A DNA stretch of 64,000 bases from a virus: IMG/VR virus record IMGVR_UViG_3300025276_000021; one strand, written 5' to 3'. Shown here one piece after another: positions 2,006 through 58,100 of this stretch. The translations under genes and the position numbers were made by a program. The notes beneath the pieces were generated by a model. The model made no database searches. It was not told the DNA's origin and saw only the letters and a program-made list of their open reading frames with translations. Positions within the stretch are counted from its first letter, which is position 1. Every line of letters starts with the position of its first letter.

Positions 2006-2947
2006 TTAAAATTTTATTCGCATATTAGCGTTTATTCTAGAAATCTCTATTGCCAAATCTTGATTTCTGTCGTGCATCTCAATCTCTTTGCCGAGTTTAT
2101 TTTCAATCCAATCCTCAGCTTTGTCCCATTCAAATTGAACACCAGAGCGCATATCATTTCTTATTTCATGGGTCATATGTACTTGTCTTATTTTATAATT
2201 ATTAACAATTACCTCGTCCCATTGTCCAGCTGGCATCCGATCTTCATTATAATGACTTTGTATCTTTTTGGCAAGTGCTTTAGCATTCTTCTTATATGTT
2301 TTTGTTGCGGCTTCAATATAACCTTTGATAATATCAGAAAGTTCTCCGCTTCTATTTTTTTGCTTTAATTCTGCAGGCAGAAGTTGCCAATACATGGTTA
2401 GACTTTCGCCTTTATTATTAGGTTTTTTACCCCAAACTCTTTCAATAGCACTTATAACATATTTTTCCATATCAGCAGGCATAGTTCCCAAATCCTTTAG
2501 ATCGACCTTGGTATTTTCAAATTTATCAGTGTATGTATCAGAGCGAGCCAATTCATACATTTCATACCAACGCCTGCCCGAATTGTCGGGTTCTGATCCA
2601 ATATCACCGGAGAACGATCCTAACAAATCAGCTTCCAATTCATAGATAACTTGAGCACCACTAGTGGCGACACCTCTAGCAAGACTCGTAGAGGACATAT
2701 TCAAAAATGCGGAAATGCCGCGCTTTTTGTTCTCACCTTTAAACATCGTTTTATGAAACTGTTGAGCTGCAATATGCCAGCAAGTTATTCTTGGAGGAGT
2801 AGGAGTGATCTGTTTCATTTGTGCTGAGGACATAGGCATCCAAAAATTTGCAATGCCTTCATTATCGCTTTTTTTGATATCAAATAGCTTTTGAGATAAA
2901 CTACTTTTACCATGCAATTCTAATAAATAAGACTTAAAATTTTGCAT
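2006..2947 (-). CDS. putative capsid-targeted internal protein; paralogue of 3406-4362; possible ADP-ribosyltransferase-like fold
   Basis: N-terminus MQNFKSYLLE; WH..GISAF..IYEL..GRRW..WDEVIV motifs shared with the paralogue. Confidence 0.55.
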   Translation of the reverse strand: MQNFKSYLLELHGKSSLSQKLFDIKKSDNEGIANFWMPMSSAQMKQITPTPPRITCWHIAAQQFHKTMFKGENKKRGISAFLNMSSTSLARGVATSGAQVIYELEADLLGSFSGDIGSEPDNSGRRWYEMYELARSDTYTDKFENTKVDLKDLGTMPADMEKYVISAIERVWGKKPNNKGESLTMYWQLLPAELKQKNRSGELSDIIKGYIEAATKTYKKNAKALAKKIQSHYNEDRMPAGQWDEVIVNNYKIRQVHMTHEIRNDMRSGVQFEWDKAEDWIENKLGKEIEMHDRNQDLAIEISRINANMRIKF

Positions 2948-3406
2948 CTATTTTGCTTTCCTTGTCAATATATAAAGAGATAATTCATCCAAATCTAGTT
3001 CTTCAATTTTAAAGCCCATTTTAGTAGCAAATCGTTTTACTAATTTACTGTATAATTTGTTTCTGCTTCCGCTCTCACCATCTTCGGCAGATTTAGATGC
3101 TGTAAAACTTGCGACTTTTATTTGTGGATTTTTCTCTATAAATTCTTTTATGTGGTTTATTACTGCGCCAAATATTTGCATTTGGTCGCCTTTACCAGTA
3201 ACAGACATATCACCACCAACACTGAATACAATATTAACGTCCGATTTTTCAGGAATATTTTTAGATTGTGACCAATTATAAATCATTTCTACAAATTGTT
3301 TACCTATTCGACCGAGATATTTTTCAGTTTCAGGTCTGGTGCTAGTTTGTTTCCACTGAATTTTAGTGTTGAACGATTCGCCCAAATGTGATTTAAAACT
3401 TATCAT
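2948..3406 (-). CDS. putative capsid-targeted internal protein of unknown function
   Basis: N-terminus MISFKSHLGE; TGKGD..IF..V...I.EF...F.A.K...SR.KLY pattern. Confidence 0.55.
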   Translation of the reverse strand: MISFKSHLGESFNTKIQWKQTSTRPETEKYLGRIGKQFVEMIYNWSQSKNIPEKSDVNIVFSVGGDMSVTGKGDQMQIFGAVINHIKEFIEKNPQIKVASFTASKSAEDGESGSRNKLYSKLVKRFATKMGFKIEELDLDELSLYILTRKAK

Positions 3407-4362
3407 TAACTTTTAATCCTTGTTGCTAATATATGGGACTGTAAATCTCTAGAATTATCCCACTCAACAACCTCTATACCTCTACTTTTAGCATCTTCCA
3501 TTGCATCTGTAACATCTGACCATAATCCATTTACAAATTGTGGTGCGGAGAGTAGTACATGTAGTTTTTTAACTTTATACTGATTGACAATCATTTCGTC
3601 CCAGGCAGCCTTGTCCAACTTATCAACATATTGTTTTTTTAGTGCAGTCGCTATTTTCTTTGAATTTTTCATATAAGATTTGTTGACTGTATCAATATAA
3701 CCCTTGATAATATTGCCCATCTCTTTTTTTGCGCCAGCTGAGTCAGGCGAACCATGTTTATCTTCTAAGTGTCTTGGTACATCTACCCAATCTGGGCGTA
3801 AGCCTCTTTTTGTATGTCCGTCTAAATTGCCTAATACTTTTCTCACATATGTTTCTATATCTTTGGGTAAACTACCCAAGTCGTTTTTCTCAAGTGGTCT
3901 ATGTAAATCGTTGATATGTGGGAAATCAGAAGTGTTATGGAATCCAGTGTCTAATAATGATTGCAATGTTACCCATCTTCTACCAGTCTTATCTACGCCT
4001 GAACGCACATCCGTTTCGAATGAACCTAAAAGATTAGCATCTAATTCATAGATAAAACCACCGCCAGACGCAATACCTCTATCCATACTACTTGGTTTCA
4101 TATTTCTAAATGCGGACAGTCCAGATTTTTTGTTTTGTCCTTTAACAAGTTTATCGTGATTACTTTCGCTAGTGACATGAAAAACAGAGCCTCTAATTTC
4201 AGTTGGCATCACTCTTTTTATGTTTGCATTACCCATAGGTATTTTAAATGACATTATATCACCATCTTTGCCGCCGAAAAGAGGCATATTAAAGAGATGC
4301 TTGGATAAGCTTGCCTGACTAAAAACTTCCTCTAATTGCATATATTGATAGAATGTTTTCAT
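3406..4362 (-). CDS. putative capsid-targeted internal protein; paralogue of 2006-2947; possible ADP-ribosyltransferase-like fold
   Basis: N-terminus MKTFYQYMQLEE; FHVT..GLSAF..IYEL..GRRW..WDEMIV. Confidence 0.55.
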   Translation of the reverse strand: MKTFYQYMQLEEVFSQASLSKHLFNMPLFGGKDGDIMSFKIPMGNANIKRVMPTEIRGSVFHVTSESNHDKLVKGQNKKSGLSAFRNMKPSSMDRGIASGGGFIYELDANLLGSFETDVRSGVDKTGRRWVTLQSLLDTGFHNTSDFPHINDLHRPLEKNDLGSLPKDIETYVRKVLGNLDGHTKRGLRPDWVDVPRHLEDKHGSPDSAGAKKEMGNIIKGYIDTVNKSYMKNSKKIATALKKQYVDKLDKAAWDEMIVNQYKVKKLHVLLSAPQFVNGLWSDVTDAMEDAKSRGIEVVEWDNSRDLQSHILATRIKS

Positions 4363-4625
4363 TTTCTATTCCTGAGTCTCGGTTCTCTACGATTATATCT
4401 TACTGTGACTGACGCTAGATTTTTCAAGTCATTGTTGAGAGGATTATTATCTTTGTGATGGATGTCACGACCATCTCCATCCTCTGCCATTCCAGACCGA
4501 ACAGCGGCGCGTCTTGCTCTTTTTCTAGCTGCATTTCTTTTCATCTGCTCAGGAGTACCAAGATAGTTTTCGCGTTCTTTTTTATAGTCTCTACCTTCAC
4601 TAATATATGCTTTAAAAGTTTTCAT
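4359..4625 (-). CDS. small basic HNH endonuclease-like protein with capsid-targeting-like leader
   Basis: MKTFKAYISE; DIHHKDNNPLNN..NL......NR HNH motif. Confidence 0.7.
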   Translation of the reverse strand: MKTFKAYISEGRDYKKERENYLGTPEQMKRNAARKRARRAAVRSGMAEDGDGRDIHHKDNNPLNNDLKNLASVTVRYNRREPRLRNRK

Positions 4626-5191
4626 GCTACATTATCCCAAAAAGTTTTACTAATTTCGCCTGCAGGAGAGGCAGACGTACTAGATGCTGGAGTGTTTGCA
4701 GTCCCACCCATATTGCTGTGGTTTGTACAGTAATAATATAAATTAGGAGCACCAACAGCAACAGTTATCTGAGTATATGCTCCAGCACTTCCCGGAGTTC
4801 CTGACGTTGTTACGCCCGTTGTGTATTCACTACCACCGCCATGTGTCCCATTAGATGTAGCACTGAATCTTAATGGATGGTTTGAGTTAGAAGAATCTGA
4901 TTGATCAAATTTATATGTTCTACCTTCTGATAAACTTAATATTCTCTCGGGCCCAACTGCATCTATATAATATCTATTTCCTACTCCTGGATTTGAAACT
5001 GTTACAGCAAAGGTAACAGTACCAGCACTTACTGTTCTGCGGACACTTGTATACACAGCATGACCATTTGTAGTTCTAATACCATTTGTTTGTTTTAACC
5101 ATAGAGGTCTTAATGGGCTATTAGCACCGGGATCAGGCGGAGCGTTATCATATTGCCAACTAGAATTGTTTGTAATATTTACGAACGCCAT
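4622..5191 (-). CDS. protein with cupredoxin-like (His/Cys-His-Met) module, probably a late or virion protein
   Basis: NHPLRF...LYYYCTNHSNMG; TATAAATA late promoter immediately upstream. Confidence 0.65.
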   Translation of the reverse strand: MAFVNITNNSSWQYDNAPPDPGANSPLRPLWLKQTNGIRTTNGHAVYTSVRRTVSAGTVTFAVTVSNPGVGNRYYIDAVGPERILSLSEGRTYKFDQSDSSNSNHPLRFSATSNGTHGGGSEYTTGVTTSGTPGSAGAYTQITVAVGAPNLYYYCTNHSNMGGTANTPASSTSASPAGEISKTFWDNVA

Positions 5192-5203
5192 GTGTCGGTC
5201 TCC

Positions 5204-6418
5204 TCATCGTTTGTTTTTACTATTTATATGTTTTAATAAATCTTCTTTATTGCTTTTACCAGTCTTAATAGAATAGTCTAGTGCAGATTGTAATACATCT
5301 CCAATAGCTTTACCCTTAAATCCAGCTTTAACTGCATCTCTACCATCTATTGGCATGTCTTTTACTGAAATATATTTTATACCCTTTAGTCTACTCGACA
5401 GAGTTTTAGATCCTTTTGCAGATAAAAATGCGTCTATAGCTCTAACATCAACACTTTTAGCATAGTTTGCAAGCTCAACATTATTCATACCTTCTTTCCA
5501 GTCTACGACATTTTGAACAATTTTTGCATCCGTATTCGAAAGTCGTATGACTGTTTTGGCAGTTGAGCCTGCTTTGTTTCCGTAGTCGCTAAGTAATATT
5601 CCCATGAATACAGCAAAATCACTTTTGCCGAGAGCGTCAATTGTTTTCAAATCGTTTGATTTTAATTTAATTGATTTAAATATATGTTTCATCAAACCAG
5701 AATCGAATAGTATTTTTACACCAATACTAGGTTTCTTAGATTTACTGAAAAGCTTTTTAAATTCTTCTTGGAATCTATCTGCGGAAATGGTAGAGATAGT
5801 GCTTGCTCTTTTCTTCATTTCCTTGTATGTCTCTTTTTCGATAGTAAAATCAAATCTTGATGCAAACTGCACAGCTCGAAACATTCTGAGAGGATCATCC
5901 TCGAACGATGTTGGACTGATCATGCGGATTTGCTTATTCTTTATATCCTTCATGCCTTTACCATCAACGTCTATTATCTCACCAGTATCAACATCTTTCG
6001 CTAGTGCATTTATCCAAAAATCGCGCCTTAGCTGATCTTGCTGTAGCGTAATGCCTTTACCAAGTTCTACTTCAAAGTCTTTATGACCTGAGCCTGTGCT
6101 TTTTGAGTCAATTCTTGGCACAGAAATATCTACATCCTCAGCTTCAGTAGAGCCTGTAGGAACAAATTTTAGAATGCCGAACGACTTGCCTACCATGTTG
6201 ACTTTACCGTGAGGCTTTAGAATTTTTTCTATATCATCTAACTCGATTCCAACAATGATAATATCAAGATCCTTAGATATTTTACCTATCATTTCATCAC
6301 GGACAACACCGCCTATTTGATATATTTTCCCACCCGCGCTTTTGATTGCTTTTCGTATCTGCGTTGACAGAAGGTCATCGACCATACTTTCATTCAAATG
6401 AGATATAAAACTTTTCAT
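5204..6418 (-). CDS. cca: class II tRNA nucleotidyltransferase (CCA-adding enzyme) with capsid-targeting-like leader
   Basis: GGVVRD...DLD (motif A), RRDFWINALA, EDDPLR, ISADRF..E; lacks the GR/K-R/K-F poly(A) polymerase signature; N-terminus MKSFISHLNE. Confidence 0.9.
   Translation of the reverse strand: MKSFISHLNESMVDDLLSTQIRKAIKSAGGKIYQIGGVVRDEMIGKISKDLDIIIVGIELDDIEKILKPHGKVNMVGKSFGILKFVPTGSTEAEDVDISVPRIDSKSTGSGHKDFEVELGKGITLQQDQLRRDFWINALAKDVDTGEIIDVDGKGMKDIKNKQIRMISPTSFEDDPLRMFRAVQFASRFDFTIEKETYKEMKKRASTISTISADRFQEEFKKLFSKSKKPSIGVKILFDSGLMKHIFKSIKLKSNDLKTIDALGKSDFAVFMGILLSDYGNKAGSTAKTVIRLSNTDAKIVQNVVDWKEGMNNVELANYAKSVDVRAIDAFLSAKGSKTLSSRLKGIKYISVKDMPIDGRDAVKAGFKGKAIGDVLQSALDYSIKTGKSNKEDLLKHINSKNKR
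5221..5228 (-). promoter_or_regulatory. T4-type late promoter
   Basis: TATAAATA 30 nt upstream of the ORF starting at 5191. Confidence 0.65.
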
Positions 6419-6428
6419 GGTTTATTCC

Positions 6429-6776
6429 TTACCAGTGTTGTACATCTGGATATCTGACAATTGCTCTAATTGATCTTACGGCTAGCTTTGCTGTCGGATC
6501 ACCCCTATCATATAATACAACCTCTGTACCATTTACAAAATCTGATACATTCACACCTTTGCCTATAAGAGACATGGTTCTGTGTAAATAATCATTTTCG
6601 TCGTAATCATTTTCAAATCCTGCTTTGCCTCGAACCTCAACCCACTTACTGCCTGGTAATGGTCGAATCCTTAGAATACCCATCTTACCTTGCCTGATAT
6701 AGGTCAATGCGTAAGACTCTTTTTTCTTACGTTGATTTTTCGTCAATTCAGTTATAAATCTAGTAAAAGATTTCAT
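6429..6776 (-). CDS. putative capsid-targeted internal protein of unknown function
   Basis: N-terminus MKSFTRFITE, very close to T4 internal-protein CTS peptides. Confidence 0.6.
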   Translation of the reverse strand: MKSFTRFITELTKNQRKKKESYALTYIRQGKMGILRIRPLPGSKWVEVRGKAGFENDYDENDYLHRTMSLIGKGVNVSDFVNGTEVVLYDRGDPTAKLAVRSIRAIVRYPDVQHW

Positions 6777-6781
6777 AGCAT

Positions 6782-7345
6782 TTATCCTTTCACATAAGGT
6801 TTGATAATAGTTTCTATGTTTTTTATGATTTTCTTATGTGTAGGACTAAGATCCTTACGATCAGCTTTTACAGCGTCTAAGGCTATTTTTGTATCGCCCG
6901 CATATTTCTTTTGCCATGATGCTGGCTGCTTTGCAATATCAGACACATTTGCTAATCTATCTGCAAGTTTAATAACAAGTGCCCAGCTTGTCATATTAAC
7001 CATTTTGCCTTTGATATATTCACCTTTGCCGCCGGCAGCTTCTAGATCATCTTTCTTAGTTGTCAATTGATCAACTAAATTTGCAACTAATCCACCAAAC
7101 TGTTTGACCAAATCGTCATGCGATAAGTCAGTGTCCTCTAACGTATCGTGTAGATATGCAGCTTGAACTAGTGCAGATAGATTTGAGGATTTAGGTTTGA
7201 ATTTTGCGACTATTTTCGCAACTTCTTTTGGATGAGCAATATATCTACCACCACTTTTCCTAAATTGTCCTTCATGTGCCTTTGTAGCAACTCTTAATGC
7301 ACTTAGGGCGCTTTCATTAAGCATATGCGACTTAAAAGATTTCAT
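6782..7345 (-). CDS. RelA/SpoT-family HD hydrolase (small alarmone hydrolase, Mesh1-like) with capsid-targeting-like leader
   Basis: AHEGQFRKSG..YIAHP, LHDTLEDT, IKLADRLAN; no synthetase domain; N-terminus MKSFKSHMLNE. Confidence 0.9.
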   Translation of the reverse strand: MKSFKSHMLNESALSALRVATKAHEGQFRKSGGRYIAHPKEVAKIVAKFKPKSSNLSALVQAAYLHDTLEDTDLSHDDLVKQFGGLVANLVDQLTTKKDDLEAAGGKGEYIKGKMVNMTSWALVIKLADRLANVSDIAKQPASWQKKYAGDTKIALDAVKADRKDLSPTHKKIIKNIETIIKPYVKG

Positions 7346-7377
7346 ATCTTTTTTTCCTTGACTGATTCTATTTCTTA

Positions 7378-7411
7378 TATTTAGACTAACACGCTAGTCC
7401 AATAATGTCAA
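7378..7411 (-). promoter_or_regulatory. sigma70-like promoter overlapping a CTAAATA late-like element, upstream of the internal-protein block
   Basis: TTGACA-17-TAGTCT with TG extension, overlapping TCTAAATA. Confidence 0.5.
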
Positions 7412-7419
7412 TAGTAGAT

Positions 7420-7836
7420 TTACTTTTTTCCGATGTTATATTTGGGACACAATTCCCAATTTACTTTTTCTTTAAAAGGAATAATCTTAATCTGTCTCAG
7501 AGGTGCCATAATTTCGGCTGCCTTACCATTAACTAAAGTAATCAATCCCCAATCAGAAATGAGTGTTGCTATAGTGTTTCTTCTAGCAACGTCACTTTCT
7601 TCAAGGTTAGATTTTTTACCATCTAGTAGAAATAGTTCCTTAAAATGTACTATAAAGTATCTACCCTGCTTATGCAGAATATGACACGATTGAAATAATT
7701 TATTCTCTTTTCTACTCGAAACGCCGATTCTAGTTAAAGTTTCACGAACCTTCAGAAAATCGTCAGGTTCGTTTAAGGTAATCTCTAACATGGATTCCGG
7801 AGTCCAAGCAACTATATTTGATTCATCCATTGTCAA
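7420..7836 (-). CDS. regA: translational repressor RegA
   Basis: MLEITL.EPDDFLKVRETLTRIG...LFQSCHILHKQGRYFIVHFKELF. Confidence 0.97.
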   Translation of the reverse strand: MTMDESNIVAWTPESMLEITLNEPDDFLKVRETLTRIGVSSRKENKLFQSCHILHKQGRYFIVHFKELFLLDGKKSNLEESDVARRNTIATLISDWGLITLVNGKAAEIMAPLRQIKIIPFKEKVNWELCPKYNIGKK

Positions 7837-7874
7837 CTCACTTTTTTTCTTATATTTTCATTACATGACAATGC

Positions 7875-7882
7875 TATTTATA
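7875..7882 (-). promoter_or_regulatory. T4-type late promoter upstream of regA
   Basis: TATAAATA in the intergenic gap. Confidence 0.65.
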
Positions 7883-7899
7883 CATTTTAAGAATTTACG

Positions 7900-8283
7900 T
7901 TATCGCGCTTTTTTACCACCTTTACTCAACTTTTGTTTAATATGGTCTAAATGCTCTTTTGAAATAAGAGATAGTACCTCTTTGGCACGAGGATTCGAGT
8001 ATCCATAATACTCTTTGATTAATTCTAAGTTTCCAACTTTCTCTGCTTTGAACCACTTAGAAAATCGTTTGCGTTTTCTTACCATATTATTCAAAAAGTC
8101 GTACTGCATTCTAGCAGGAATAGTATGATTAATATTCATTTGATTTGCAATACCAATAGTGTCGTGAAAATAAGATAAGCCACGATTTACCATCCAGCTA
8201 CTATACGCTTTCTCTGCTAAATCGTCTACCATAATATCGTCTTTTTTAATATTGATTGAATTTAAATAATCAAAATGATTCAT
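7900..8283 (-). CDS. gp62: clamp loader small subunit
   Basis: FDYLNSIN...YSSWMVNRGLS...RKRKRFSKW...IKEYYGYS; synteny. Confidence 0.93.
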   Translation of the reverse strand: MNHFDYLNSINIKKDDIMVDDLAEKAYSSWMVNRGLSYFHDTIGIANQMNINHTIPARMQYDFLNNMVRKRKRFSKWFKAEKVGNLELIKEYYGYSNPRAKEVLSLISKEHLDHIKQKLSKGGKKAR

Positions 8284-19766: not shown

Positions 19767-20867
19767 CTAGGTATTATTTTTAAGTGCGGCAACATAATGT
19801 GCCATGCTAGAGGAAACATCAACAGGCGCTTCTGTTTCTTCGCTTTCTTCAGTAATCATTGTTTCTTCAACTAGATCAGCATGTGTTTCTACATCTGATT
19901 TATTTGAAAAATATGATTCCTTGATGGTTTCGACTTTAAAGAGAAACGACTCAACGTCCTCAAATTCGATTCCTTCTGCTAGTTTTTCTAATTTGGTTGC
20001 TTGAGTATCTGCAAGATCCTTAGAAGCTTCACGAATGATCGCGAGGCGTTGTAGGTCTTTTACATGCTCATTCATTTCCATATTAGTAGCTGTTTGCTTG
20101 TTTAGGCGAGTCTCAAGTTCTTGGACTTCCTCTGCAAGCTGGTCAACTAGATCAACTTTGGATTCTGGAACTTCGATATATGACTCAGTAAACAGGTCTT
20201 TCAACTTGCTCATAAATCCTTCTGAAATTTCATTCCGAATACCAGTCTCAACAGCGAGACGGTTTTCTTCTACCCATTGTTCGACTACATAGTTAAGATA
20301 AGAATCAATTTTGTCTACCAATTCGCTTTTGGCTTCCACAATTGCTTCCGAAGTCTCGTCGGCGTATTGCTCTTCGAGGCTTTCGATTCTATTGCTAAAT
20401 GCTTCTTCCAATTCTTGAACTTTTGATTCAACCCGAAGGTTCAATGCGGCTTCAAAAATAGTGCCAGCTTTATCTTTAAAATCTTCTGATAGTGACTCAT
20501 CGCTTGAAATCAGTGCTTCGAGATCAGCTTCGGTAGTATCTTCTACCATCACTTCTTCCTCGTCACTTACTTCAATTTCTTCGCCCATCATGCTTGAATA
20601 AGCCGCCATCAACTTAACTTTGTTAAGCTCTGACATTTTTTGGCTCATTGCATTGATCATACCCGCTTTAGTTTTCGGGGGTGATGCTTTTTTTACATTG
20701 CTAGTATCACCAGCGGCTTTTGCTGGATCAGCGGGGCCTCCGGTACCAGCATCTTCAGATCCACCGGCTGGCAGCTCCATGCTGCTCTCCGATACATCTA
20801 GTTCTTCGTTAGATTCCACAATTTCCTCATCATGGACTTCAACGTATTCTTGATCTTGATCAGTCAT
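19767..20867 (-). CDS. gp22: prohead core scaffold protein
   Basis: Acidic coiled coil; LSEDFKDKAGTIFEAA, IDSYLNYVVEQW. Confidence 0.93.
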   Translation of the reverse strand: MTDQDQEYVEVHDEEIVESNEELDVSESSMELPAGGSEDAGTGGPADPAKAAGDTSNVKKASPPKTKAGMINAMSQKMSELNKVKLMAAYSSMMGEEIEVSDEEEVMVEDTTEADLEALISSDESLSEDFKDKAGTIFEAALNLRVESKVQELEEAFSNRIESLEEQYADETSEAIVEAKSELVDKIDSYLNYVVEQWVEENRLAVETGIRNEISEGFMSKLKDLFTESYIEVPESKVDLVDQLAEEVQELETRLNKQTATNMEMNEHVKDLQRLAIIREASKDLADTQATKLEKLAEGIEFEDVESFLFKVETIKESYFSNKSDVETHADLVEETMITEESEETEAPVDVSSSMAHYVAALKNNT

Positions 20868-20881
20868 ACTTGACTCCTTTT

Positions 20882-21529
20882 TTATTTCAATAACGAGAGG
20901 AAATTTTCAAACCCACGAACTTGCGCTTCTTGCAATGCTCTTGATGGTGCTCTTTTTATTTCAGTCTCTATTTTTTCAATGTCTTGAGCCTCGATCAGAC
21001 CATTATTCCAAACCCACTCTACACCTTCCATAATTCCATTAACAAAAGCATTAGGTGCAGATGGATCCTGGACAATGTCGATAGTGCTAAGGACGAAATC
21101 GTCTTTAACTTCCATCACGCCGTTACGATTTTCCAGACTTCCCATACCACGAGTCGAAACACCTAGTTGAACACCGCCATCTAGCAGACCTTTAACAATC
21201 TTACCCATAGGAGTATCTAATATAAGTGCTTTACCCATCACATTATTTCCCTCAAAATTGAGATCCGTAATACGATGGGATACTTTATCCAAATTAATAG
21301 TCGGGCCTTCGGGGTGATTTAACTCACCAACAGCACGACCTTTGGAAACTTGTTCTGTAACATATTTGCCTACAGCTTTTTCCATAATCGCTTTCGGATA
21401 ATTTCTACCGTTACGATTTTTTTGGTCAGCTTGTGCAAATACACCTTCGATTTGATAAGACTTAGCTTCGCCTTTACCTTCAGTGACCAGTGATAGATCG
21501 TGGTCACAATATTCTGCGATTAGTTTCAT
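20882..21529 (-). CDS. gp21: prohead protease
   Basis: NRNGRNYP, GELNHP, GVSTRGMGS, DIVQDPSAP. Confidence 0.97.
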   Translation of the reverse strand: MKLIAEYCDHDLSLVTEGKGEAKSYQIEGVFAQADQKNRNGRNYPKAIMEKAVGKYVTEQVSKGRAVGELNHPEGPTINLDKVSHRITDLNFEGNNVMGKALILDTPMGKIVKGLLDGGVQLGVSTRGMGSLENRNGVMEVKDDFVLSTIDIVQDPSAPNAFVNGIMEGVEWVWNNGLIEAQDIEKIETEIKRAPSRALQEAQVRGFENFLSLLK

Positions 21530-21532
21530 GTC

Positions 21533-21736
21533 TTATCCTTTACCTTTAGAAAATTGTTTAATAAACTCTTTAGCCATTTTAATAGCATCTTTTTCAGAAT
21601 CGTAATCATCTAAATGTTCGCCGTCGATAGTAGCTTTAAATCGATCACCAGCTTTAGTGACAACAATCGTTTGATCTCCAACCTTAACTTTTTTCTCAGT
21701 CAACAACGATTCTTTTAGTTCATTAAAAGTTTTCAT
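21533..21736 (-). CDS. prohead core protein (gp68-like position)
   Basis: Probable start MKTFNELKES at 21736; immediately upstream of gp21. Confidence 0.6.
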   Translation of the reverse strand: MKTFNELKESLLTEKKVKVGDQTIVVTKAGDRFKATIDGEHLDDYDSEKDAIKMAKEFIKQFSKGKG

Positions 21737-46157: not shown

Positions 46158-49100
46158 TTATTTTTCAGTGAATAACCAGCCGTTCGCAGTATTATAATAA
46201 ACTAAACCAAACGCTGCACGGTCAACATCAATCGTTAAATCTGAATCGCTTGCTTCAATCTTATGTCCATTTCTATTTATAGTGATATTATTAGTCGATG
46301 CATTTCCCGTTCCATCTATAATTCTAATTTCATCTCCCAATGTGGCAGTAACAGGAAGATTTACGACGATTGCTGTTGAAGTGTCAAGGATAAGTCTTTG
46401 TCCAGCTGTTACTGTGACTGTAGATGTTACTTCTGACCAACTATTTGGAGCTGATGTTCTGGCTGAAATATATGCACTATCGACAATTCCTACAACGTCT
46501 GCGCTATCAAATGCTGCTGGAATAACAACTCTTGCGTTGATGTATGCACTATCAATTAAACCTATGACCGAAGCACTATCAGTTCCAGATGATCCAGATG
46601 AAACTCTTGCGTTGATGTATGCACTATCAATTAAACTTACAACACTTGATGCTCCAGATGGATTTGCTTTTACCCACTGCGAAGTTGCATTGTCGTCCGT
46701 ATAGTAAACATATGTTTCTAGAGCTTCTGGATCAAACCACATCTGTCCTTCTTCTGGTGATGCTGGTGCAGTATCGGATACTGTTAATCCACCGCCCGAG
46801 GAGCCGCCTGCGATTTCAATAATGTCAGCACTATCCAGAATACTTGCGTCATATAACTCTGTTCCGTGTACAATAGCGTTAATGATTATTTCATCGCCAG
46901 AGTCTAAACCGTATGTTGTTGTGATAGTGTTCGTAGCTGTTACTGAATAGTCTGCTCCCAATACAAGTCTGATACCATTATTAAATACTTGAATTTTATC
47001 AGCATCGAATGAAGCATTAATCCCATTAACATCTGTACCAGTAAATACTGTTGAACCACTATCAGCTTCAAATTTGTAGTTAACAAATTTAGGTTTCGTA
47101 TATGCGACTTGTGTTGTGGTGTTATAAACAACAGAGCCAGTAGCATTTTTGAAGCCCATAATCGTTATTTCGTCAGTAGAGTCTGCGGCAGTATTCAGTG
47201 TTACCGTATCTGTACCAGTTCTAGTATAATCGTCATTAAATCTAAGCAAAGCACCGTTAAAATAAACTAGTGGAGAATTATTAGTTGCCAGAAATTCTAG
47301 CGCGATTCCATTTTCATCGTTACCTGTAAACACAGTTTGATTTTGTGTTGCAGTATATTTGTAAATATCAAACCCAGTTGTTGTGCCAACACGCGCTTGA
47401 ATGTATGCACTATCTACAGTATTTGCGACAGTTTCTTCCGATACAGTAACTCTTGCGCCTATATAAGCACTATCAATAAGATTGACGATTGCTGCACTGT
47501 CAGTTCCAGCAGATACTCTCGCTTGGATATAAGCACTATCGACAAGATTACCAGCGACAAAGGAAGCATCTGCACTATCAAATGCTGCTGGGATAACAAC
47601 TCTTGCATTGACGTATGCACTATCGACAAGATTACCAGCGACGAAAGAAGCATCTGCACTATCAAATGCGGGTGGGATAACAACTCTTGCGTTGATGTAT
47701 GCACTATCAATATCAGATGCATTAGCTAGTTGAATCCAATTACCAGCATGAGAATAATATGCTTTTTGTGTTCCATGAACATGTGCAAACATACCATGAT
47801 ATGTGCTGGCTGATGGAAGATCGCCTTCAGTAGAATAAACATTTGAATATAGAACTTTATTTGAACCAAGATTAAGGTCTCCAGTCAAAGTTCCGCCGGC
47901 TAATGGTAATTTATCAGCAATACTATTCGTTATTGTAGTCGAGAAATTAGAATCGTTTCCTAATGCAGACGCTAATTCAACTAAAGTGTTTAATGCGTCT
48001 GGTGCAGCGCCAACAAGTCCGTTTACTGCACTATCAGCAATAGTGCGGACAAAATCTTCAGTCGGTAGTACATTCCATGAGCCGCCCTGTGCAACTCTTG
48101 GTTTGCCTGCTTGCATTGCAAACATACCTTCGTAAGTAGAAGGACTAGGCATACTTGCAATTGTAGGATAATTGTTAGAGTATGCAATTTTATTTGCGCC
48201 GAAATCTATATCTGAAGTGCCTATTCCGATTGCAGTATTGATATATGCTGTTGTTACGACATTAGCAATATCCGATGCACTGGCTGCTTCCTGTCTTGAT
48301 TGGACATAAGCACTATCAACAAATATATTAGATATAGATGTAATATAAGCACTATCGATAACAGATTTTAAATCAGCACTTAAAATATAAGCACTATCTG
48401 CCACAGATTTTATCCATGTGATATTTGCTCTTGATTGAACATAAGCACTATCAATCATATTGCTGGCTGCGTTTGAATCTATACCTATTACTTTAGATGC
48501 AATGCCGTTTTCATCTGCAATACTAATTCCTGTGGGACTAGAAGATAGTGATATTCCGCCAAGGTTGATTGTGTTTCCACTAAGATGTAAGTCTCTCCAA
48601 GCGCGAGTTGGCGATCCTAGATCGTATATTTCATGCGCTGCAGGTATTACATTATGTGCAGAATTTAAGACACTTTGAATATATCCTGAGTCAGCAGCAC
48701 TTAAAATGTACGCTGAGTCTGCGGCACTTAAAATATATGCACTATCTGCTACTGTTTTTACATACGCTGAGTCTGCGGCACTTAAAATATATGCACTATC
48801 AATAACAGATTTTAAATCTGTACCCAGAACGTATGCACTATCAGCAGCACTTAAAATATATGCACTATCAATAACAGATTTTAAATCTGTGCCTAGAACG
48901 TATGCTGAGTCTGCGGCACTTAAAATATATGCACTATCAATAACAGATTTTAAATCTGTACCTAGAATGTATGCTGAGTCTGCAATAAATTTGATATGGT
49001 CACTATCAGCCGCAGAATGAATATAAGCACTATCAATTATCTCTTTCAGATAATTTTCGTTTACTATAGTCGAAATATGATCACTATCAGCCGCAGAATG

Positions 49101-52100
49101 AATATAATCACTATCCGCAAGTTCTCTGATCCATTCATAACTTGCTACTGTTTTGACATAATCACTATCCAGAAGATCCACAATATTAACAGAATTTATG
49201 AATACACCATCATCTGCATTTATTTTGCCTGCAACGTCAAGTTCAAACGCGGGCGTAGTTTTGCCAATGCCTAAGAATTTGGTATTGTCATATACTGTAT
49301 ATGTACTTCCTTCTTCAAACACATTTGTAATTTGTAATTTTTCGCCATTGATTTCAATGTGTCCATTCCAAATTTCAAGTGCAGCTTTTTCTACAAACCC
49401 TGCTGGATCTTGAGGACCAGATATTACAACTTTGCCGCCTACACCTAGTCCTGCATTCGAGGCGCCCGGCGTAGTTTTACCGAGGAAATCGATCAGTTCT
49501 GTGCCTTGTACAATAGTATTGCCTGAGATAAGAGTTACATCATAAGGTGATTTGCCGATGCCGACTTTAGTATTATATAAAGCCTCAAATGCGCTTGGAT
49601 TTGTAAACTGAGTCCAACCTGTAGGAGTAATAGGATAATCATTACCAAACTTAGGTGATGGTCCATTAACTCTAAACGCAATCATAGATGGATCAATTGC
49701 AGAATCGAGTCTTTCTTGCAAGTCCTCGAACGATGGCCATGGTGTTGTGTCTACACGATCATTAATATAGTCAGCATCTATCATTTCAAATACTGCAACA
49801 GAATCATTTGCGTGAAGTGGATTTCCACCAAAGCTTGCGCGTTCATTGATGTAAGTACTATCAAACCAAAGAGTTGCAGATTCTTCACTTATGCTTATGG
49901 TATAAGCTTCCGTGACATGATTCAAATATACAGCGTCTTCCTGAACAAGAGGAAGAATAACATCGCCTTGATAAGTTAAGCCGTCGAGGTTTACATTTCC
50001 TTTAACGTCTAATTTATAAGGAATAGCTGGTTTGTAATCAAAGCCGTTTGGAGGATATCTCAGATAATTTGGGTTATTATCAAAGCTAGATTTGTCTAGT
50101 CCTATTCCTACTGCACCTTGACCATTATAAAGTAGATCGCCTGTTGGTCCCGAATTATCGTTTTGGAAGAACATGTCATCAGTTTGAGTTTGTCTTAGAT
50201 ACTCTTTTGTGACTGCTGAATGGATATAATCACTGTCAGCAATAAATTTGATATGATCGCTATCAGAAGCAATTTGTCTAATATAATCATACAAACGCAT
50301 GCCCTGGACAAAGAATTGATTATTTCTTCCTCCTACATCACCACAGACATTAATGTTACCATAGACTTCTAAGCCGATATCTGTATTACTCCAAGCGCCG
50401 TTAGAAGTTGTTACAGATTTTGTGCTACTATTTAATGTAGGACTTGAAGGAACAGTATTTACAACATCCTGACCTATGATAACTGTACCGCCCTGAATAG
50501 ATAGTGTGTCTGGCGTGCTTGAAGTAACTTGAGTACTACCTAGACCAATCGAAACACTATTTGTTGCAGTTGCCGCCGTCGATACATTATGTCCTAGTGA
50601 AATAGTATTAAGTCCGTCAGCAGAAATATTTCTACCAATCGCGATTGCGTTATTTGCTGCAGTAATGTCGCGTCCAAATGCAATTGCGTTATTTGTTACT
50701 GTATTACTTCTACCAAATGCGATACCGTCTGATGCAGCATTATTTAATCTACCAAACGCGGATGAGAAACTATTTGATGTTGATGCAGTGTTGTTATGAC
50801 CGAATGCTATACCACCATCAGTAGTATTAGATTTACCAAATGCTTGACCAGAGTAACTTACTTGGTTGCTAGATCCAAATGCGATACCATTATAACCTGC
50901 TACAGTATTTGCACGCCCGTAAACCATTGACTCAAGATTATTGTTTGTTGAGCTTGTAGATGCAGTATTGCTGTGTCCAAAAATAGTAACTCTATAATTT
51001 CCGGTGTTACTATTTCCGAAAATTTCAGATGAATTATTACCCGTATTAGAACGCCCAACTACATTAGTATCAACATTTCCAGTATTATAAGTGCCAACTG
51101 TGTATTCATAATTACCAGAACTACTTGTCGAGTTTCCATGTCCTATAACTATATAGTTTGTGCCTACAGTATTACTTGATCCAACACCGGTTGAATTTGT
51201 ACCTACTGTGTTGTTTCGTCCAACAGATACAGATAATCTGCCCGATGCTAGTGTTCTATAGCCGATTGCCGTAGATTGAGTTCCAGATGCAACACTTCCG
51301 TGTCCTGAAGCAAAGGCTGTGCCACCTGATGCCAGATTGTTCATGCCAATAGCAACGCCGCTGTTACCAGTTGTCTTATTTGATCTACCAATTGCAACAC
51401 CGTTTGACGAAGCGGCAGAGTTTCCTTTACCTATACTTACAGCATTTGTGCCGTTAATTAATGAACCTTCGCCAATGACAACTCCAGAGTTGCCACTTTT
51501 AACTGATCTACCTAGTGCAAGACCATTTGCGCCATAAGCGTATACGTTTTGTCCAATTGCTAGTCCGCCGGAAGTTGCATAGAGCGAGTTACCTATAGCT
51601 GTACCGCCGCCCGCTGCATAAATTTGTCTACCGATGCCAGTCGCATTAGATGATCCCGTAACTTCAACATCATAGCCTATTGATGATCCATAATGCGAAT
51701 TTACTTTTGAATTTCTACCAATAACAACGCCATGACTACCGCGCGTTTGGACTTCAACGTCTTTACCTACAGCAACAGCTTGTGCAGAGTTTACAACAGC
51801 ATTGTTACCTACAGCAACAGCATCAGACCTTGTACTTTTTGCCCCTGTGCCCACGACAACAGACCTTCTGGCACTAGTGGTAGTAGTTATATTATTTCTA
51901 CCTATAGAGACAACTTCTGATCCTCTTTGTGACGAGAAATTGCTTGCACCTACAAAGACAGAGTTTGCAGCATTATCAATAGAAAAGTTTCTGCCCATAA
52001 CTATAGAGCTTGCTGCATTATTAGTGGTTATCGTATGACCCATAATTGTTGAGTTTAATGCATTAGTAGTGTTTATCGTATATCCGATTGCTAGTGCAGT

Positions 52101-55100
52101 TTTAGAAATACTAACATCTTTACCTATAAGAATACTATTATCTGCATTTGTGGTAAGTGTAGTCAGACCTTTACCAATAGATACAATATTAGCAGCGAGA
52201 TTTGCTGTAGGTGTATTGATAGTAGCACCAATAGATAGATTATTTGCTCCGTAGCTGAATATCGTTTGACCAATTGATACGATATTGTTTGTGGAAAATC
52301 TATGTACTGTGTTTACGTCTGTATTCGTAATTCCTTGACCGAGAGCAACAGAACCAAAATTTTCGTTAATGATCGTTTGACCTATTGAAACTGCGTGTGT
52401 TCTATTTACTGAACCACTTACAGTCTCGTCAAATGTAACGCCTGCTTTCGTATCATTACCAAGAGCAGTAGAGTGATGTCCCGCTCTTGTATTACTACCT
52501 ATTGCGATTGATTTGAAACCTACATTACTATCTTTCCAGAAATCTGCTGAAGTAGCATAATCCAGAGCACCAATTCTTAATGCGCCTCTTGTGCCAAACC
52601 ACATCATACTAGATGCTGAATTATAATTAGGAATTGAGCCTCTAATTGGATTATTTTGGTCAGCTTCTAAAATACTACTTAGGAATACAGCATTTCCAGA
52701 ATCTACAATAAATTTTGTGAAATCGTCTGTTGCCAATAGTGTATTTTTAGGACCAATAATTACGGCGCCTTCTTCATCATAATAAATTTTCTTTTGACTT
52801 CCTGTCTGTTCGATATTCCAGGGAGTTTCAAGTCTAGTACCAATATAATCTGAATCTACAATTCTTGCGATATGATCATCTACATCAACTCTAAGAATTT
52901 TTCTGGTGCCGTCTGCATTTAATACATGATGTAGCTTTCCTGTCGGAGTAGTATACGCTTTACCACCAAAGACTGGAGAACCGTCAGATTCAATTTTATA
53001 CATGACATTCTGAGCATCACCTTCAGTAGTAAAGAAGGTTTGATAATTTACGCTAGTCTCGAAGAATTTTTGGGCACGGACATGCTTCAATGTAGAATGA
53101 TATTGATTATATGTATTAGGTGGGAATACTGTTTTTATGCCGGAGCCTGTTCCGTCAGACTCATGCTTGAAATAGTACATTGGGTTACTAACAAACACTG
53201 AGCCTTGCGAATCAACATCAATATCGTCTTTAAAGAACGACTTACCACCAACGTCTATGTTTCCGCCAGCTTTTATGTTTCCGCCGGCGTCTATAGAATC
53301 TTCTACTGTTAAAGTTCTATTGTAAACGCTATCGTGTATAGTTACTGGTAGACTCAATGTAAGTGTTGGAATGTCGTTAAGTGGTAGACTTTCGAGAACT
53401 CTGACAACATAAGAATCTAGCGTGGCTTGCTTACCTGTTACTGTAGTAACTACTGTTCTTCTAGGATTGCCCGCACTATCAGGATTTCTTGCTGCAATTG
53501 CAGGATCAGCGTTTGTAGGATCGTACCAAGGGCCTAATGTGCCATCGAATGTACCATCAGATTCAATTTTGCCTAATGAGTTGCCGATACCATCACTATC
53601 TTGTTTAAATGCTGAAGAACTAATATTTTGAATAGCGCCATAATACATGACGCCGTTAGGATCCATAGTTAACTGCTTAATTGTAGTATTAGCTGCCGCT
53701 GCCAAATTATCAATGATATGAGAGTCCATACCCTTAGCAAGATTGTATGATGAATCTATAGTACTAGCGGCAATAATATTGCTGTAGTGTCCGTATCCAT
53801 CTTTTTCTGTTCTGAGATGAATGACGCCAGTAGGAGTTCCTTGAACAAAACTATTTGTTAAGTTAGGACCACCGTCTGATTCAACTCTTCCTGATAGAGT
53901 ACCAGAGCCATCAGATTCTTGCTTATCTTCAAGCACTGCGGGAACAATAGTTGAATTAGTAATAGTTTTAGATGGTCCAAAGAACCAAGTACTCTGAGAG
54001 TCAACGTGAACGTCTTGGAAAAACTCTAATGTGCCAGTTGCATTACTTTCAAATCTCATTCCGCCTTTAACAATAAAGCTATCGTGCGTAGTAAATCTAG
54101 AACCTATATGAGGATAGCCTGGTTTCGCAGCGGTTGCCATCGCTGCTGAGCCTAGAACAACTTCTCCGTAAAGATTTGTAGGTCCGAATATATTCGTTTC
54201 ACTTGTTAGTTTAACTGAATAATCTTGAATGATAAATTTATCGCCGAGTTTAATTGTTCCTAGAGAATCACTAACTGCGGCTGAATTGCCTCCCGGAAAA
54301 GGTTCTGAGGATAATCTTAAATCATCATAAATTTCAATATATTGATTATTGATGATTTTAAAATCTCTGTTATTATCATTAGTTAATTGACCTTTAAAAT
54401 TACCTAAAGAATCTAACAACTTGACGATAGGATCATTAACTCCATGGAGAGAAATGCCAGCGTTTATATCTAAAGAATCGCCGTTATCATCAATTAAATT
54501 TGAATCTTTGTCTTGCAAAACACCTGCATCGTCATATTTTTTAGCTGCTAATATGATCGTATTTCGAGTAGATGTTGTATCAGGATACATCCATCTGCTA
54601 TTCGCTGTTGCAGAAATATCATTTGTAGCAAGAGCAGTTTCTAATACATATACTGTTTTTGAATAGTTAATATGCGTTTTTAGTGCATTATAAACTCCAC
54701 CAATGCCATAGATAGCAGAATCAAATAATGCTGTATTTCCTAAAGAGTCGTAGTGAACGCCTTGTACTAATACAGATGAATTGCCATTGCTATCAACTCT
54801 TACAATTCTAGTATAACGATCATCAACGCTATCATTAAACAAAAACGAAACGTGTTGTTCGTCTGCACCAGCATCGGGGTTGCCGATTTGCGTCTGAAGT
54901 TCAACAGTATTTAATGTTTTTGCTTGACGCAGGTTTAAATAACTGCTATCAAATGTAAATGTATATTCAGAATCTAATACGTTATCGTGACCTAATACAA
55001 GCAATCCACCTCTTAGGTGTGTGCTATCACCAACATATAATCCTTTAGTTCCTACTATTTTATTTTCGTTTGCACCTATATTATCTAAGCCAGAATATGA

Positions 55101-58100
55101 TCCAACACTAAGCATATTTTCAAAATATACATCACCCTTTACTTCAAGATCACTGTCAAAATTACCAGAACCAAGAACGTCGAGATTGTGTGTTGCTTCA
55201 CGACCCGTCTTATTGATTGCAATTTTTAGTTTACCATCATATCGGAAACTATTAGCTTCATCATCGCCTGTTACAGGGTGCGGCGCACCGATGTAAACTG
55301 CGTTAAAGCTATCGTGTTTCCAGTAATAATCAGAATCCCAAACACTAATAACAAATGCACTATCAATCTGGGCCTGAATCCAAGACGCTGTGATGCCGCC
55401 ACCACCATCTTGCTTTATCCAATTAGTATCATCGTATGGTGTGTTAGGCACAAGCACATGTTGAATCCAAGCCGAATCTGCAGCACTTAAAATATACGAA
55501 CTATCAATAAAAGACTTATATAATGCACTATCAAACTGCGCTCTAATATGAGTTTGATCAAGATAGTTTTCTTGAATCATCCATGACTTGCTAGGCCAAC
55601 CTTCTCCATTAGCCATGATTGGGGGCGTACCACCGTTATATACGCCATTTTTGTACATAGCTTTATTCATGTTAAAGGGATTAGTTCTTACATTTAGACG
55701 CCCTTGAACATCAAGACCTATAGAATCTCCAGTGCCACCACTCAAATTGCCTTTATTGAAAGATGTACTTTGTTGGTATGCTGTTGTCTGAAAAGTACCT
55801 ACATTAGTAGCGCCGTCTGCCATAGTTTTATATTGACCAGTCCAAGCTTGATCGTTTGATAAGCCTATAGCAACAGCTTTTGGTTCATCGTTTGGATTAT
55901 ATACAAGTGCGTCTGGTAATACACGCCAGTTGTTTTCTGAATCAACTCTTTGTTGAACGTAGTCTGTATCAAACATATCAAAAACAGCATTATAAATCGC
56001 GCTTCCTGGTCTAACAACAAAGCTGTCGAGAGACATAGGATTGCCTAATGCATTATAGCCAATATAAAAACTGTCATTATCTGTATCGTCTAACCAATGT
56101 ACGCTACCCGCAACAGTAAGTTTACCTGTTATATAAACGCTGTCGCCAAATAAGGCTGTAGTTGCACCAGTAAGTGAGCCAGCAATAGTTAGATCGCCTC
56201 CGGCTGTAATACTATCACTAAACTCGCCAAATGTAGCACCAGTTAAAGAACCCCCAATAGTTAGATCGCCTCCGGCTGTAATACTATCACTAAACTCGCC
56301 AAATGTAGCACCAGTAAGTGAGCCAGCAATAGTTAGATCGCCTCCGGCTGTAATACTATCACTAAACTCGCCAAATGTAGCACCAGTAAGTGAGCCAGCA
56401 ATAGTTAGATCGCCTCCGGCTGTAATGCTATCACCGAATTTACCATAAGAAGCTATATCTAGATAGTTACCGCCTTTGATATATCCGCTAGTAACATCTA
56501 AATAATTACCGTTGACTATTACATCTTTAGCTACACTTAAAGAATCGCCTAGTGTTGTAGTTCCCTTAACAATTAAGTCACTATCAATAATTACGCTATT
56601 TTTGAAACGTGAGGGCGCGACAGATATAACAGGCTTCGGTTGAAGTTTAAGATAAGCGCCGAACGGAATGCTAGTGCCAGATACTGCACCCCAAAAAGAT
56701 GGATCATAATTATCTGTTGCGGGATCGCCTGTATTATTAAGAGTTATGACACCCGCACTAAGCTTAGATCGGCTAGTACCCTTGAGAGTACTAACATTAG
56801 TAGTGTCTGTAATGTCTCTGAGACTAAAACTATCTCCTTGAGGACCAATAGCTGAAATTGTGTAAATAGAGTCATTTAAGAATTGCCCTATTGTAGACAC
56901 CGCCGGCAATTCAAATTGAATTGTTTTTCCGATAGTCAATAGACCATTAGTATTTTGAACAACGACAACAGCAGGATTACTTTGTTCAATGTCTATTACA
57001 GTACTCAATGGCAATGCAACAGGCTCAGGAACTATTTCAATATCAACGGGTTCAATGCCAAAGATGTAATCTCTAAGTTCTATATCATTAACATATATTG
57101 TTGCATCATAACTATCACCAGGAACAATGAGTGGTGTTCCGGAGACGCCAGTGCCATCAGTCATCACTCCACTCTTATATCCAAAGTGAATTGTACCACC
57201 AGAAACATCAAGCGCACCTCTAGCATATGATCTACCTATTGCAACTTTCGTATTATTGCTTTCGCCGACGAGATTTGAACTTGTTGGATTACTCAAAACA
57301 ATTTGATTTGCGTGTCCACCGGGAGGATTAGTTAGTGTTGTTTTCTGACCTAAAAGAAATACGGGCTTACTTAATGTTGTTGCAATTCTATTATCTTTAC
57401 CAATCACATATGCATTTTGCAGATTATGAGCAGCGGAATCTACAATATTGTCTCTACCGATAAAGAAATTGCCTGATCTGGTGCCGGTTGTTCCGTTCAA
57501 AGACGATCTATCAGAATCTTTATTACCTTCGCCTATAAAGACTGAATATGATCCTTTAATATGATTCGAACCAGTGCCCATTGCTATCGATACACTGTTG
57601 GCTCCGATTATTTTTGTATTATTACCGCCTATAGATATTGATCTAGAGCCTGATATAGTGTGATTTGTACCACCTATTGCAATTGCACGACTACCTTCAA
57701 TAGTACCACTCGCATTTAATGCAGTTGCGTATGTGCCCGAAATCGTAGTACTGCCTTGTACATTAAATGCTGCGGCGTAGTTAGCTTCTAATGTGACGGC
57801 TCCTGCACCACCGATAATTGTGTTTCTTTGTGATTTTATTCTGGATCCAGAAGCTGCAGATATCATACTGGAATAATCTGAAGTACTGTCTATCTGCGAA
57901 CTAACGCTGTTTAATATCATACTATATGATGGTTGAGAACTCTGACCTACACCACCTATATTAACACTTTGACCGCCAAGGATAATTGATTTTGTGCCAT
58001 ATATATTACCGTCAAACGCGCCTATGACAGTTGAATATGATCCTAGACTATCAACTTTCGATGTACTGAAAGCATTTGCTACCATAGAATAATCACCAGC

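Follow-up and report, generated by a model that had tools for sequence, protein, structure and literature searches.

Leader-tagged alarmone hydrolase and CCA-type nucleotidyltransferase genes as candidate capsid cargo of a marine T4-like phage

In the 64,000-nucleotide IMG/VR virus record IMGVR_UViG_3300025276_000021 (hereafter the window), which is part of an uncultured marine T4-like myophage, a three-gene stretch at positions 5204-7345 encodes a small alarmone hydrolase (SAH), a short protein that we call o115, and a class II tRNA nucleotidyltransferase of the CCA-adding type (the CCA enzyme). All three proteins begin with the same short leader, and by sequence this leader matches the capsid-targeting sequence (CTS) of phage T4 at its targeting and cleavage positions. 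We consider it probable that each of the three genes is a cargo cassette in its own right, within a hypervariable internal-protein array between regA and hsp20, that their products are packaged and injected, and that the two enzymes act in parallel. Virion packaging of the tagged proteins is the inferred part of this proposal, drawn by analogy with T4. An earlier reading, made from the sequence alone, had described the two enzymes as catalytically intact, tagged, and separated by one small tagged open reading frame (ORF). The ORFs are exactly as it stated (187, 115 and 404 residues), and the enzyme identities and intact catalytic motifs were borne out by Pfam, PHROG, structure alignments and translation; its further proposal of a functional pair fared less well, as described below. 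Capsid-targeted internal proteins of T-even phages, phage alarmone hydrolases as possible tools against toxic small alarmone synthetases (toxSASs), and phage CCA enzymes are already known. What is new is a T4-type leader joined to recognisable enzymes across a large, abundant marine phage group. All genes discussed here lie on the minus strand, and their coordinates are collected in Table 1.

A T4-type leader on consecutive genes

The three proteins share the N-terminus M-K-S-F-x-x-[FH]-[LIM]-x(1-2)-E, of about ten residues. When the window was scanned in six frames with the strict pattern M[KQIL][STN]F..[FYH][LIM].{1,2}E, only 7 of 1254 candidate starts matched, and all seven were the first codons of adjacent ORFs at 2006-7345(-), where seven of eight consecutive ORFs are tagged. 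Chance falls far short of explaining this clustering. Both TCT and AGT, codons that are not interconvertible, are used for the serine at position 3, so that selection acts on the peptide and not on the RNA. In the window, the leaders carry an aromatic residue at positions 4 and 7, Leu, Ile or Met at 8, and Glu at 10 or 11. Among 53 distinct leaders, K occupies position 2 in 64%, T or S position 3 in 70%, I or L position 8 in 81%, and E position 10 in 75%. As read from the T4 sequence, ipII and ipIII both begin MKTYQEFIAE, and the likeness to IPI, IPII and IPIII, internal proteins of T4, covers a leader of about ten residues with the same key positions (M1, K2, T/S3, aromatic 4 and 7, I/L 8, E 10). 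In the T4 CTS, residues 4 and 7 serve targeting and residues 8 and 10 processing, and CTS fusions up to the size of beta-galactosidase were packaged at 20-200 copies and delivered into cells (review of Black's work, PMC9026906).

The window also encodes the head proteins with which such a leader would work. A gp21-type protease is expected to clip the leaders after Glu, a gp22-type scaffold is their expected docking partner, and the propeptide of the major capsid protein gp23 ends L-T-E, with the mature domain beginning after that site. As for the T4 internal proteins, the leader stands on unrelated proteins whose genes occupy a hypervariable locus, in a phage with this type of protease and scaffold; together with the leader residues, these are the features of T4-type capsid-targeted proteins. 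The earlier claim of a capsid tag is supported by the ipII/ipIII match, by the T4-type protease and scaffold, and by the dependence of the leader on the phage.

This dependence became apparent in relatives. Searches of IMG/VR with both enzymes yielded 48 loci from 37 contigs, in which the gene content of the regA-hsp20 interval differs from contig to contig and nearly every gene is tagged. The leader was found on at least 14 protein families in the 37 contigs. It varies with the phage and not with the enzyme: the SAH family alone carries five versions, a contig uses one version on unrelated cassettes (M-K-T-F-Y-Q-Y on four cassettes of L018), and all cassettes of a second clade (L038-48) carry an M-L-x-F leader. 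Nearly all of the best 120 homologues of the CCA enzyme (at least 49% identity) are tagged, with the GG motif at fixed position 35. SAH homologues of at least about 54% identity mostly carry the leader; below about 50% it is missing and the proteins begin 12-20 residues ahead of the first motif, and the SAHs of the cultured phages DLP_6 and SRILMA are untagged. Distant homologues of the CCA enzyme lack the leader too. Sequence comparison thus presents the leader as a separate add-on that is tied to the phage. In other lineages it is also found on scattered genes far from regA.

A tagged enzyme at the same site occurs in a cultured phage. Directly after regA, the OM43 phage Melnitz (Methylophilales phage Melnitz-1, MZ577095.1) encodes a tagged 349-residue RimK-like ATP-grasp enzyme (L054:6404-7453) with the leader-like N-terminus K-F-S-Q-F-I-T-E. 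The product names in MZ577095.1 look shifted by one gene: the ORF that matches regA is labelled RimK-like, and the next ORF, the ATP-grasp one, is labelled hypothetical.

The two enzymes and o115

The SAH scored 56 bits against Pfam HD_4 (cut-off 27.2; 5e-15) and 8e-6 against Pfam HD. Its match to NCBIfam spoT_relA, at 3e-26 for the hydrolase part, spans only positions 1-138 of the 687-position model, and the protein is single-domain, without synthetase or regulatory domains. When aligned to the solved structures of Rel/SpoT hydrolase domains (1e-16) and human MESH1 (4e-12), it was found to conserve all catalytic motifs, namely H-x-G-Q-x-R, HP, HD-x-x-ED and KLADR-x-x-N. By these sequence features it is an active-looking single-domain hydrolase of the RelA/SpoT type. 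It resembles PbcSpo of Salmonella phage PVP-SE1 and PaSpo of SSU5, which are likewise single-domain RelA/SpoT hydrolases of lytic phages with an intact catalytic site (PMC7229694). However, PbcSpo and PaSpo are not headed by a capsid-targeting leader, and their synthesis is presumed to follow infection, whereas the window SAH has the leader and is closer to the hydrolase domains of long Rel/SpoT proteins than to solved SAHs (2e-7). Phage SAHs neutralise each of the toxSASs that were tested (Jimmy et al. 2020, PMC7229694), and the SAHs MESH1 and ATfaRel alone reverse the 3'-pyrophosphorylation of tRNA, restoring aminoacylation (bioRxiv 10.1101/2021.04.30.441581); the background cited in the sequence-only reading is thus sound. 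Neither a toxSAS nor a RelA_SpoT synthetase domain was detected in the neighbouring ORFs or the array with Pfam, PHROG or NCBIfam, and the arrangement is not that of a type IV antitoxin. Action against toxSASs is one possible job of the SAH among several.

The CCA enzyme matched Pfam PolyA_pol with 67.9 bits (cut-off 23) and PolyA_pol_RNAbd with 54.9 bits (cut-off 22), the PHROG tRNA nucleotidyltransferase family at 9e-60, and solved CCA enzymes in the PDB at 2e-21. Motifs A (GGVVRD...DLD) and C (RRDF) are exact in the translation; motif D is DDPLR and not the usual EDxxR, its D-x-x-R part being invariant in 26 family members. A structural model built on these 26 members aligned at full length with the T. 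maritima CCA enzyme in complex with tRNA (5hc9; Foldseek E 1e-14, template-modelling score (TM) 0.62, 436 columns), a match that predicts a complete head-neck-body-tail architecture. In this model the predicted local distance difference test (pLDDT) exceeds 90 for body and tail, and confidence in the head domain is low. The family is divergent, and the specificity of the window transferase may be CCA addition, A addition or tailing. Both the architecture and motifs A-D are shared with the class II tRNA nucleotidyltransferases of tRNA-rich jumbo phages and cluster C mycobacteriophages and with E. coli Cca. In contrast to these, the window enzyme carries the leader; it is at most 36% identical to any cultured-phage enzyme, and it lacks the HD domain that the multifunctional E. 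coli Cca has in the same chain. The tagged family forms more than 100 clusters at 90% identity in ocean metagenomes, and a protein identical to that of the window is recorded on a 194,829-base contig.

Between the two enzymes lies o115, for which no Pfam, PHROG or NCBIfam match was found. Its core of about 85 residues recurs as a module in large multidomain phage proteins (171 library matches, many in long proteins), and the long proteins that hold it also carry cytidylyltransferase, DUF5824, ParB_N or NT5C domains. Seven residues are invariant (E47, R49, G50, K51, D59, D62 and H65). The AlphaFold 2 model reached a pLDDT of 82, and no PDB fold matched it (best Foldseek E 0.17; best VIA Z 3.6). 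A protein-atlas lead (0.84-0.85) to a 2H phosphoesterase was rejected, given a single H-x-T motif and a confident model without a PDB match. We also rejected o115 as an obligate partner of the CCA enzyme: distant tagged CCA genes occur without it, and an o115-like gene stands beside an SAH gene without a CCA gene in L060. A prediction of the complex of o115 with the CCA enzyme gave a score of 0.10 (mark 0.32), which speaks neither for nor against binding. In one clade the two genes co-occur in 11 of 11 cases and move as one indel. At L060:3805-7502, a 951-residue protein containing DUF5824 is followed by a tagged hydrolase and then by a tagged o115-like protein of 97 residues; the o115 core also lies inside the DUF5824-containing giants P0255 and P0258.

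Independent cassettes, a pair, or ordinary intracellular genes

According to the reading that we favour, each cassette would be a complete protein behind a T4-type capsid-targeting propeptide of about ten residues. Through the propeptide, the protein would attach to the prohead's gp22 scaffolding core; the gp21-type protease would then remove the propeptide after Glu, and the mature protein would be kept in the filled head and ejected with the DNA into the next host cell. Arriving before phage gene expression, the SAH would act on (p)ppGpp or (pp)pApp, and possibly also on pyrophosphorylated tRNA, by stripping off 3'-pyrophosphates. A starved or defending host would thereby be freed from a growth arrest imposed by the stringent response or by alarmones. 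The transferase would complete or rebuild tRNA 3' ends. The two would act in parallel and would be gained and lost separately.

The sequence-only reading had instead taken the SAH and the CCA enzyme for one co-selected module that repairs toxSAS-damaged tRNA 3' ends, by removal of the pyrophosphate and then rebuilding of the end. Such a module would suit genes that are near neighbours in the window, and it would suit the published reversal of tRNA pyrophosphorylation and neutralisation of toxSASs by SAHs. Among the loci fetched with the CCA protein, 17 of the 19 that could be assessed also hold the SAH, the exceptions being L013 and L019. A fusion is also known: in the 595-residue protein P0217 (L064:1832-3619), a tagged HD domain of a different, generic kind (PF01966, non-alarmone type) precedes a CCA enzyme, with a leader remnant lacking Met between the two parts. 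This protein is either a cassette fusion or an assembly error and, as a single case, hints that combinations of phosphohydrolase and CCA enzyme recur. The co-occurrence check, however, upheld the pairing only in part. Both enzymes were present in 11 of 17 complete regA-hsp20 intervals and the SAH alone in the other six, in a sample biased by the use of these two proteins to fetch the loci. All loci of the second clade have the SAH without the CCA enzyme, and L013 has the CCA enzyme without the SAH. In distant lineages, tagged CCA enzymes (L055 and L058; 53% and 50% identity) stand without SAH or o115 within 8 kb, and tagged SAHs (L060 and L062; 65% and 57% identity) without a CCA gene within 8 kb. 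A comparison of L030 with L031 revealed a clean 1.56-kb indel around 6550-8120 that takes o115 and the CCA gene and spares the SAH, with flanks 95-98% identical; the deletion junction rebuilds the late-promoter-like box TATAAATAG before the fibre-like gene. (A further 348 bp, from within this gene, are missing in L030.) Furthermore, the published SAH reaction restores an intact CCA-OH end that can be aminoacylated, and therefore no CCA enzyme is needed for that repair; the array holds no RelA/SpoT synthetase gene either. The pairing of SAH and CCA enzyme thus holds only in part of one lineage, and we regard a dedicated repair module as improbable.

Another possibility is that the shared N-terminus is a junction left by cassette shuffling, or a means of translational control, and that the enzymes are ordinary intracellular auxiliary genes, which would add CCA to phage tRNAs or tmRNA and control alarmones during the latent period. 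Immediately upstream of the array is the translational repressor gene regA, to which it is translationally coupled in relatives; cultured phages commonly have untagged SAH and CCA genes, and conserved 5' ends would favour cassette recombination. However, the leader is conserved at the amino-acid level, as the serine codons indicate, and its conserved positions are those important for targeting and cleavage in T4. It also stands on genes far from regA, and a leader-like start is found on a small protein within the head-gene module. A recombination handle and a targeting signal are moreover compatible, the T4 CTS being both. We therefore judge this explanation unlikely, though less so than the repair module. 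The least likely of those weighed is a transferase that resembles poly(A) polymerases or adds CCACCA tags and is injected to mark host RNAs for decay, shutting off the host. All head-domain motifs are common to class II CCA enzymes and bacterial poly(A) polymerases, the NCBIfam pcnB model (3e-33) nearly equals the CCA models (1e-37), none of them reaching its cut-off, and motif D is DDPLR and not EDxxR throughout the family. Against this, the model fits CCA enzymes more closely (TM 0.61-0.64) than it does E. coli poly(A) polymerase (0.47-0.48), a weak difference given the low-confidence head domain, and several family members match the tRNA_NucTran2_2 domain.

Several observations weigh against packaged, injected and independent cassettes. 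The case for packaging is built on sequence likeness to T4, a phage with only distantly related head proteins; for gp23, all but two cultured phages fall below 60% identity. At the regA site, tagged cassettes are missing from the cultured relatives C48C1 and HTVC008M. The late-type box before the SAH is a variant (CTAAATAT), and in most relatives the SAH gene abuts the regA stop codon, without a promoter of its own; the gap between the two genes is kept only in the closest relatives. The CCA enzyme missed the NCBIfam equivalog cut-offs for CCA enzymes (best 129.5 bits against a cut-off of 438.8), and the substrates of both enzymes are predictions. Nevertheless, independent injected cassettes remain the explanation that we think probable.

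The wider proposal is that abundant marine T4-like phages inject, at DNA entry, a ready-made SAH that ends stringent or alarmone arrest together with a CCA enzyme that restores tRNA ends; this we put forward tentatively, as a real possibility that we would not yet call probable. By a rough estimate with assumed numbers, 100 injected molecules in a marine cell of 0.05 fL correspond to about 3 uM enzyme, which would be enough to matter; turning over once per second, they would need only minutes to remove some thousands of alarmone molecules. If true, these would be the first virion-delivered enzymes that act on host translation and starvation signalling, and in tiny cells of marine oligotrophs a hundred injected molecules would already reach micromolar levels. 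It is an open question how phages gain control of starved and slow-growing marine bacteria; according to an older idea, since questioned, cyanophage MazG clears ppGpp. A capsid-delivered hydrolase would act before phage genes are read and would make the question of takeover directly testable.

Known systems, genome context and further cargo

The T4 internal proteins are small basic proteins, one of which, IPI*, inhibits a restriction enzyme; here the cargo consists of recognisable enzymes of up to 404 residues, and longer ones in relatives. The T4 loci lie near gene e, whereas the present locus lies between regA and hsp20, and packaging is inferred here. If packaging is real, the T4 capsid-targeting system would reach beyond small inhibitor proteins to an enzyme toolkit that is modular and exchangeable, the leader would provide a simple sequence handle for spotting injected phage effectors in metagenomes, and Melnitz, which is cultured and has its tagged ATP-grasp gene at the same site, would offer a laboratory system. 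In the proposed delivery of enzymatic domains with the invading DNA, the array also resembles the polyvalent proteins (Iyer, Burroughs, Anand, de Souza, Aravind 2017, PMC5512222). The repertoires overlap in ADP-ribosyltransferases, Zn-proteases, ParB-like and cytidylyltransferase domains and the core domain of o115. However, polyvalent proteins are single giant polypeptides, whereas the array gives every domain a gene and a leader of its own. Among their domains the authors list RelA/SpoT synthetases and not the hydrolase, and the paper does not mention "CCA-adding". A literature search, in which most subscription journals were not covered, found no account of capsid-targeting leaders in marine T4-like phages, nor of CCA enzymes carried in virions.

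The gene order in the window is gp44 clamp loader, DexA-like exonuclease, gp62, regA, the three-gene stretch, more small genes and hsp20. The head module lies further along, with portal, small core proteins, gp21 protease, gp22 scaffold and gp23. The gp55 late sigma factor is also encoded, and no tRNA genes were found within the window. Its gp23 shares at most 65% identity with the gp23 of any cultured phage, the nearest cultured relatives by this protein being Phage C48C1, Stenotrophomonas phage DLP_6, OM43 phage Melnitz, Pelagibacter phage HTVC008M and cyanophages. A search of the phage collection found no near-identical DNA among cultured phages.

Table 1. Positions in the window of the three genes, their leaders and the neighbouring and head-module features.
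Feature	Position	Strand	Remarks
SAH, RelA/SpoT-type HD_4 domain, 187 residues	6782-7345	-	first cargo cassette after regA
CTS-like leader of SAH, residues 1-11, MKSFKSHMLNE	7313-7345	-	predicted cut after Glu11; HD_4 begins at residue 16
o115, tagged protein, 115 residues	6429-6776	-	leader MKSFTRFITE at 6747-6776
Class II tRNA nucleotidyltransferase, CCA-adding type, 404 residues	5204-6418	-	leader MKSFISHLNE at 6389-6418
Promoter-like elements in the 74-nt regA-hydrolase gap	7377-7411	-	weak consensus matches; early-type TTGACA (7406-7411)-N17-TAGTCT overlaps late-type box CTAAATAT (7377-7384), before SAH
Tail-fibre/baseplate-like ORF, 189 residues, sole untagged ORF of the array	4622-5191	-	PHROG tail-fibre families 1e-18 to 1e-22
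Late-type box TATAAATAG of ORF 4622-5191	36 nt upstream		inside 3' end of CCA gene
HNH_3 protein, tagged cassette	4359-4625	-	HNH_3 1e-6
o318, tagged cassette, 318 residues	3406-4362	-	paralogue of o313
o152, tagged cassette	2948-3406	-	leader
o313, tagged cassette, 313 residues	2006-2947	-	paralogue of o318
gp22-type scaffolding core protein	19767-20867	-	T4_CASP 2e-63
gp21-type prohead serine protease	20882-21529	-	Peptidase_S77 7e-40; own N-terminus MKLIAE
Small head-module protein between portal and protease genes	21533-21736	-	starts with leader-like MKTFNELKE

Further tagged cargo in the relatives includes ADP-ribosyltransferases, a SprT-like protease, HNH, ParB-like, cytidylyltransferase-like and kinase-like proteins, and a methyltransferase. 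The tagged ADP-ribosyltransferases at L062:858-2984 (708 residues) and L044:1047-1988 (313 residues) are functional analogues of the packaged Alt of T4, although neither shows detectable resemblance in sequence to phages of the T4 group. The larger one was rejected as a homologue of Alt: it has no match in the T4 group, and only six Vibrio phages match it. Tagged DUF6267 proteins of about 410 residues adjoin the SAH in the second clade (L038:6580-7806) and the fusion of HD domain and CCA enzyme (L064:3622-4890). These carry KWDG and EGYV..D, similar to the nucleotidyl-transfer motifs of ligases; a ligase assignment was rejected, as there was no sequence or profile match in the PDB and none in the protein atlas.

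Within the window, o318 and o313 match no known family, and one of them has a sub-threshold match to a restriction-endonuclease-like domain of contact-dependent inhibition (CDI) toxins (17 bits, cut-off 27). The middle of a cargo array is an odd location for a tail component such as the ORF at 4622-5191. In the tail region, a single ORF at 46158-61586 encodes 5142 residues, beside ORFs of 1851 and 905 residues.

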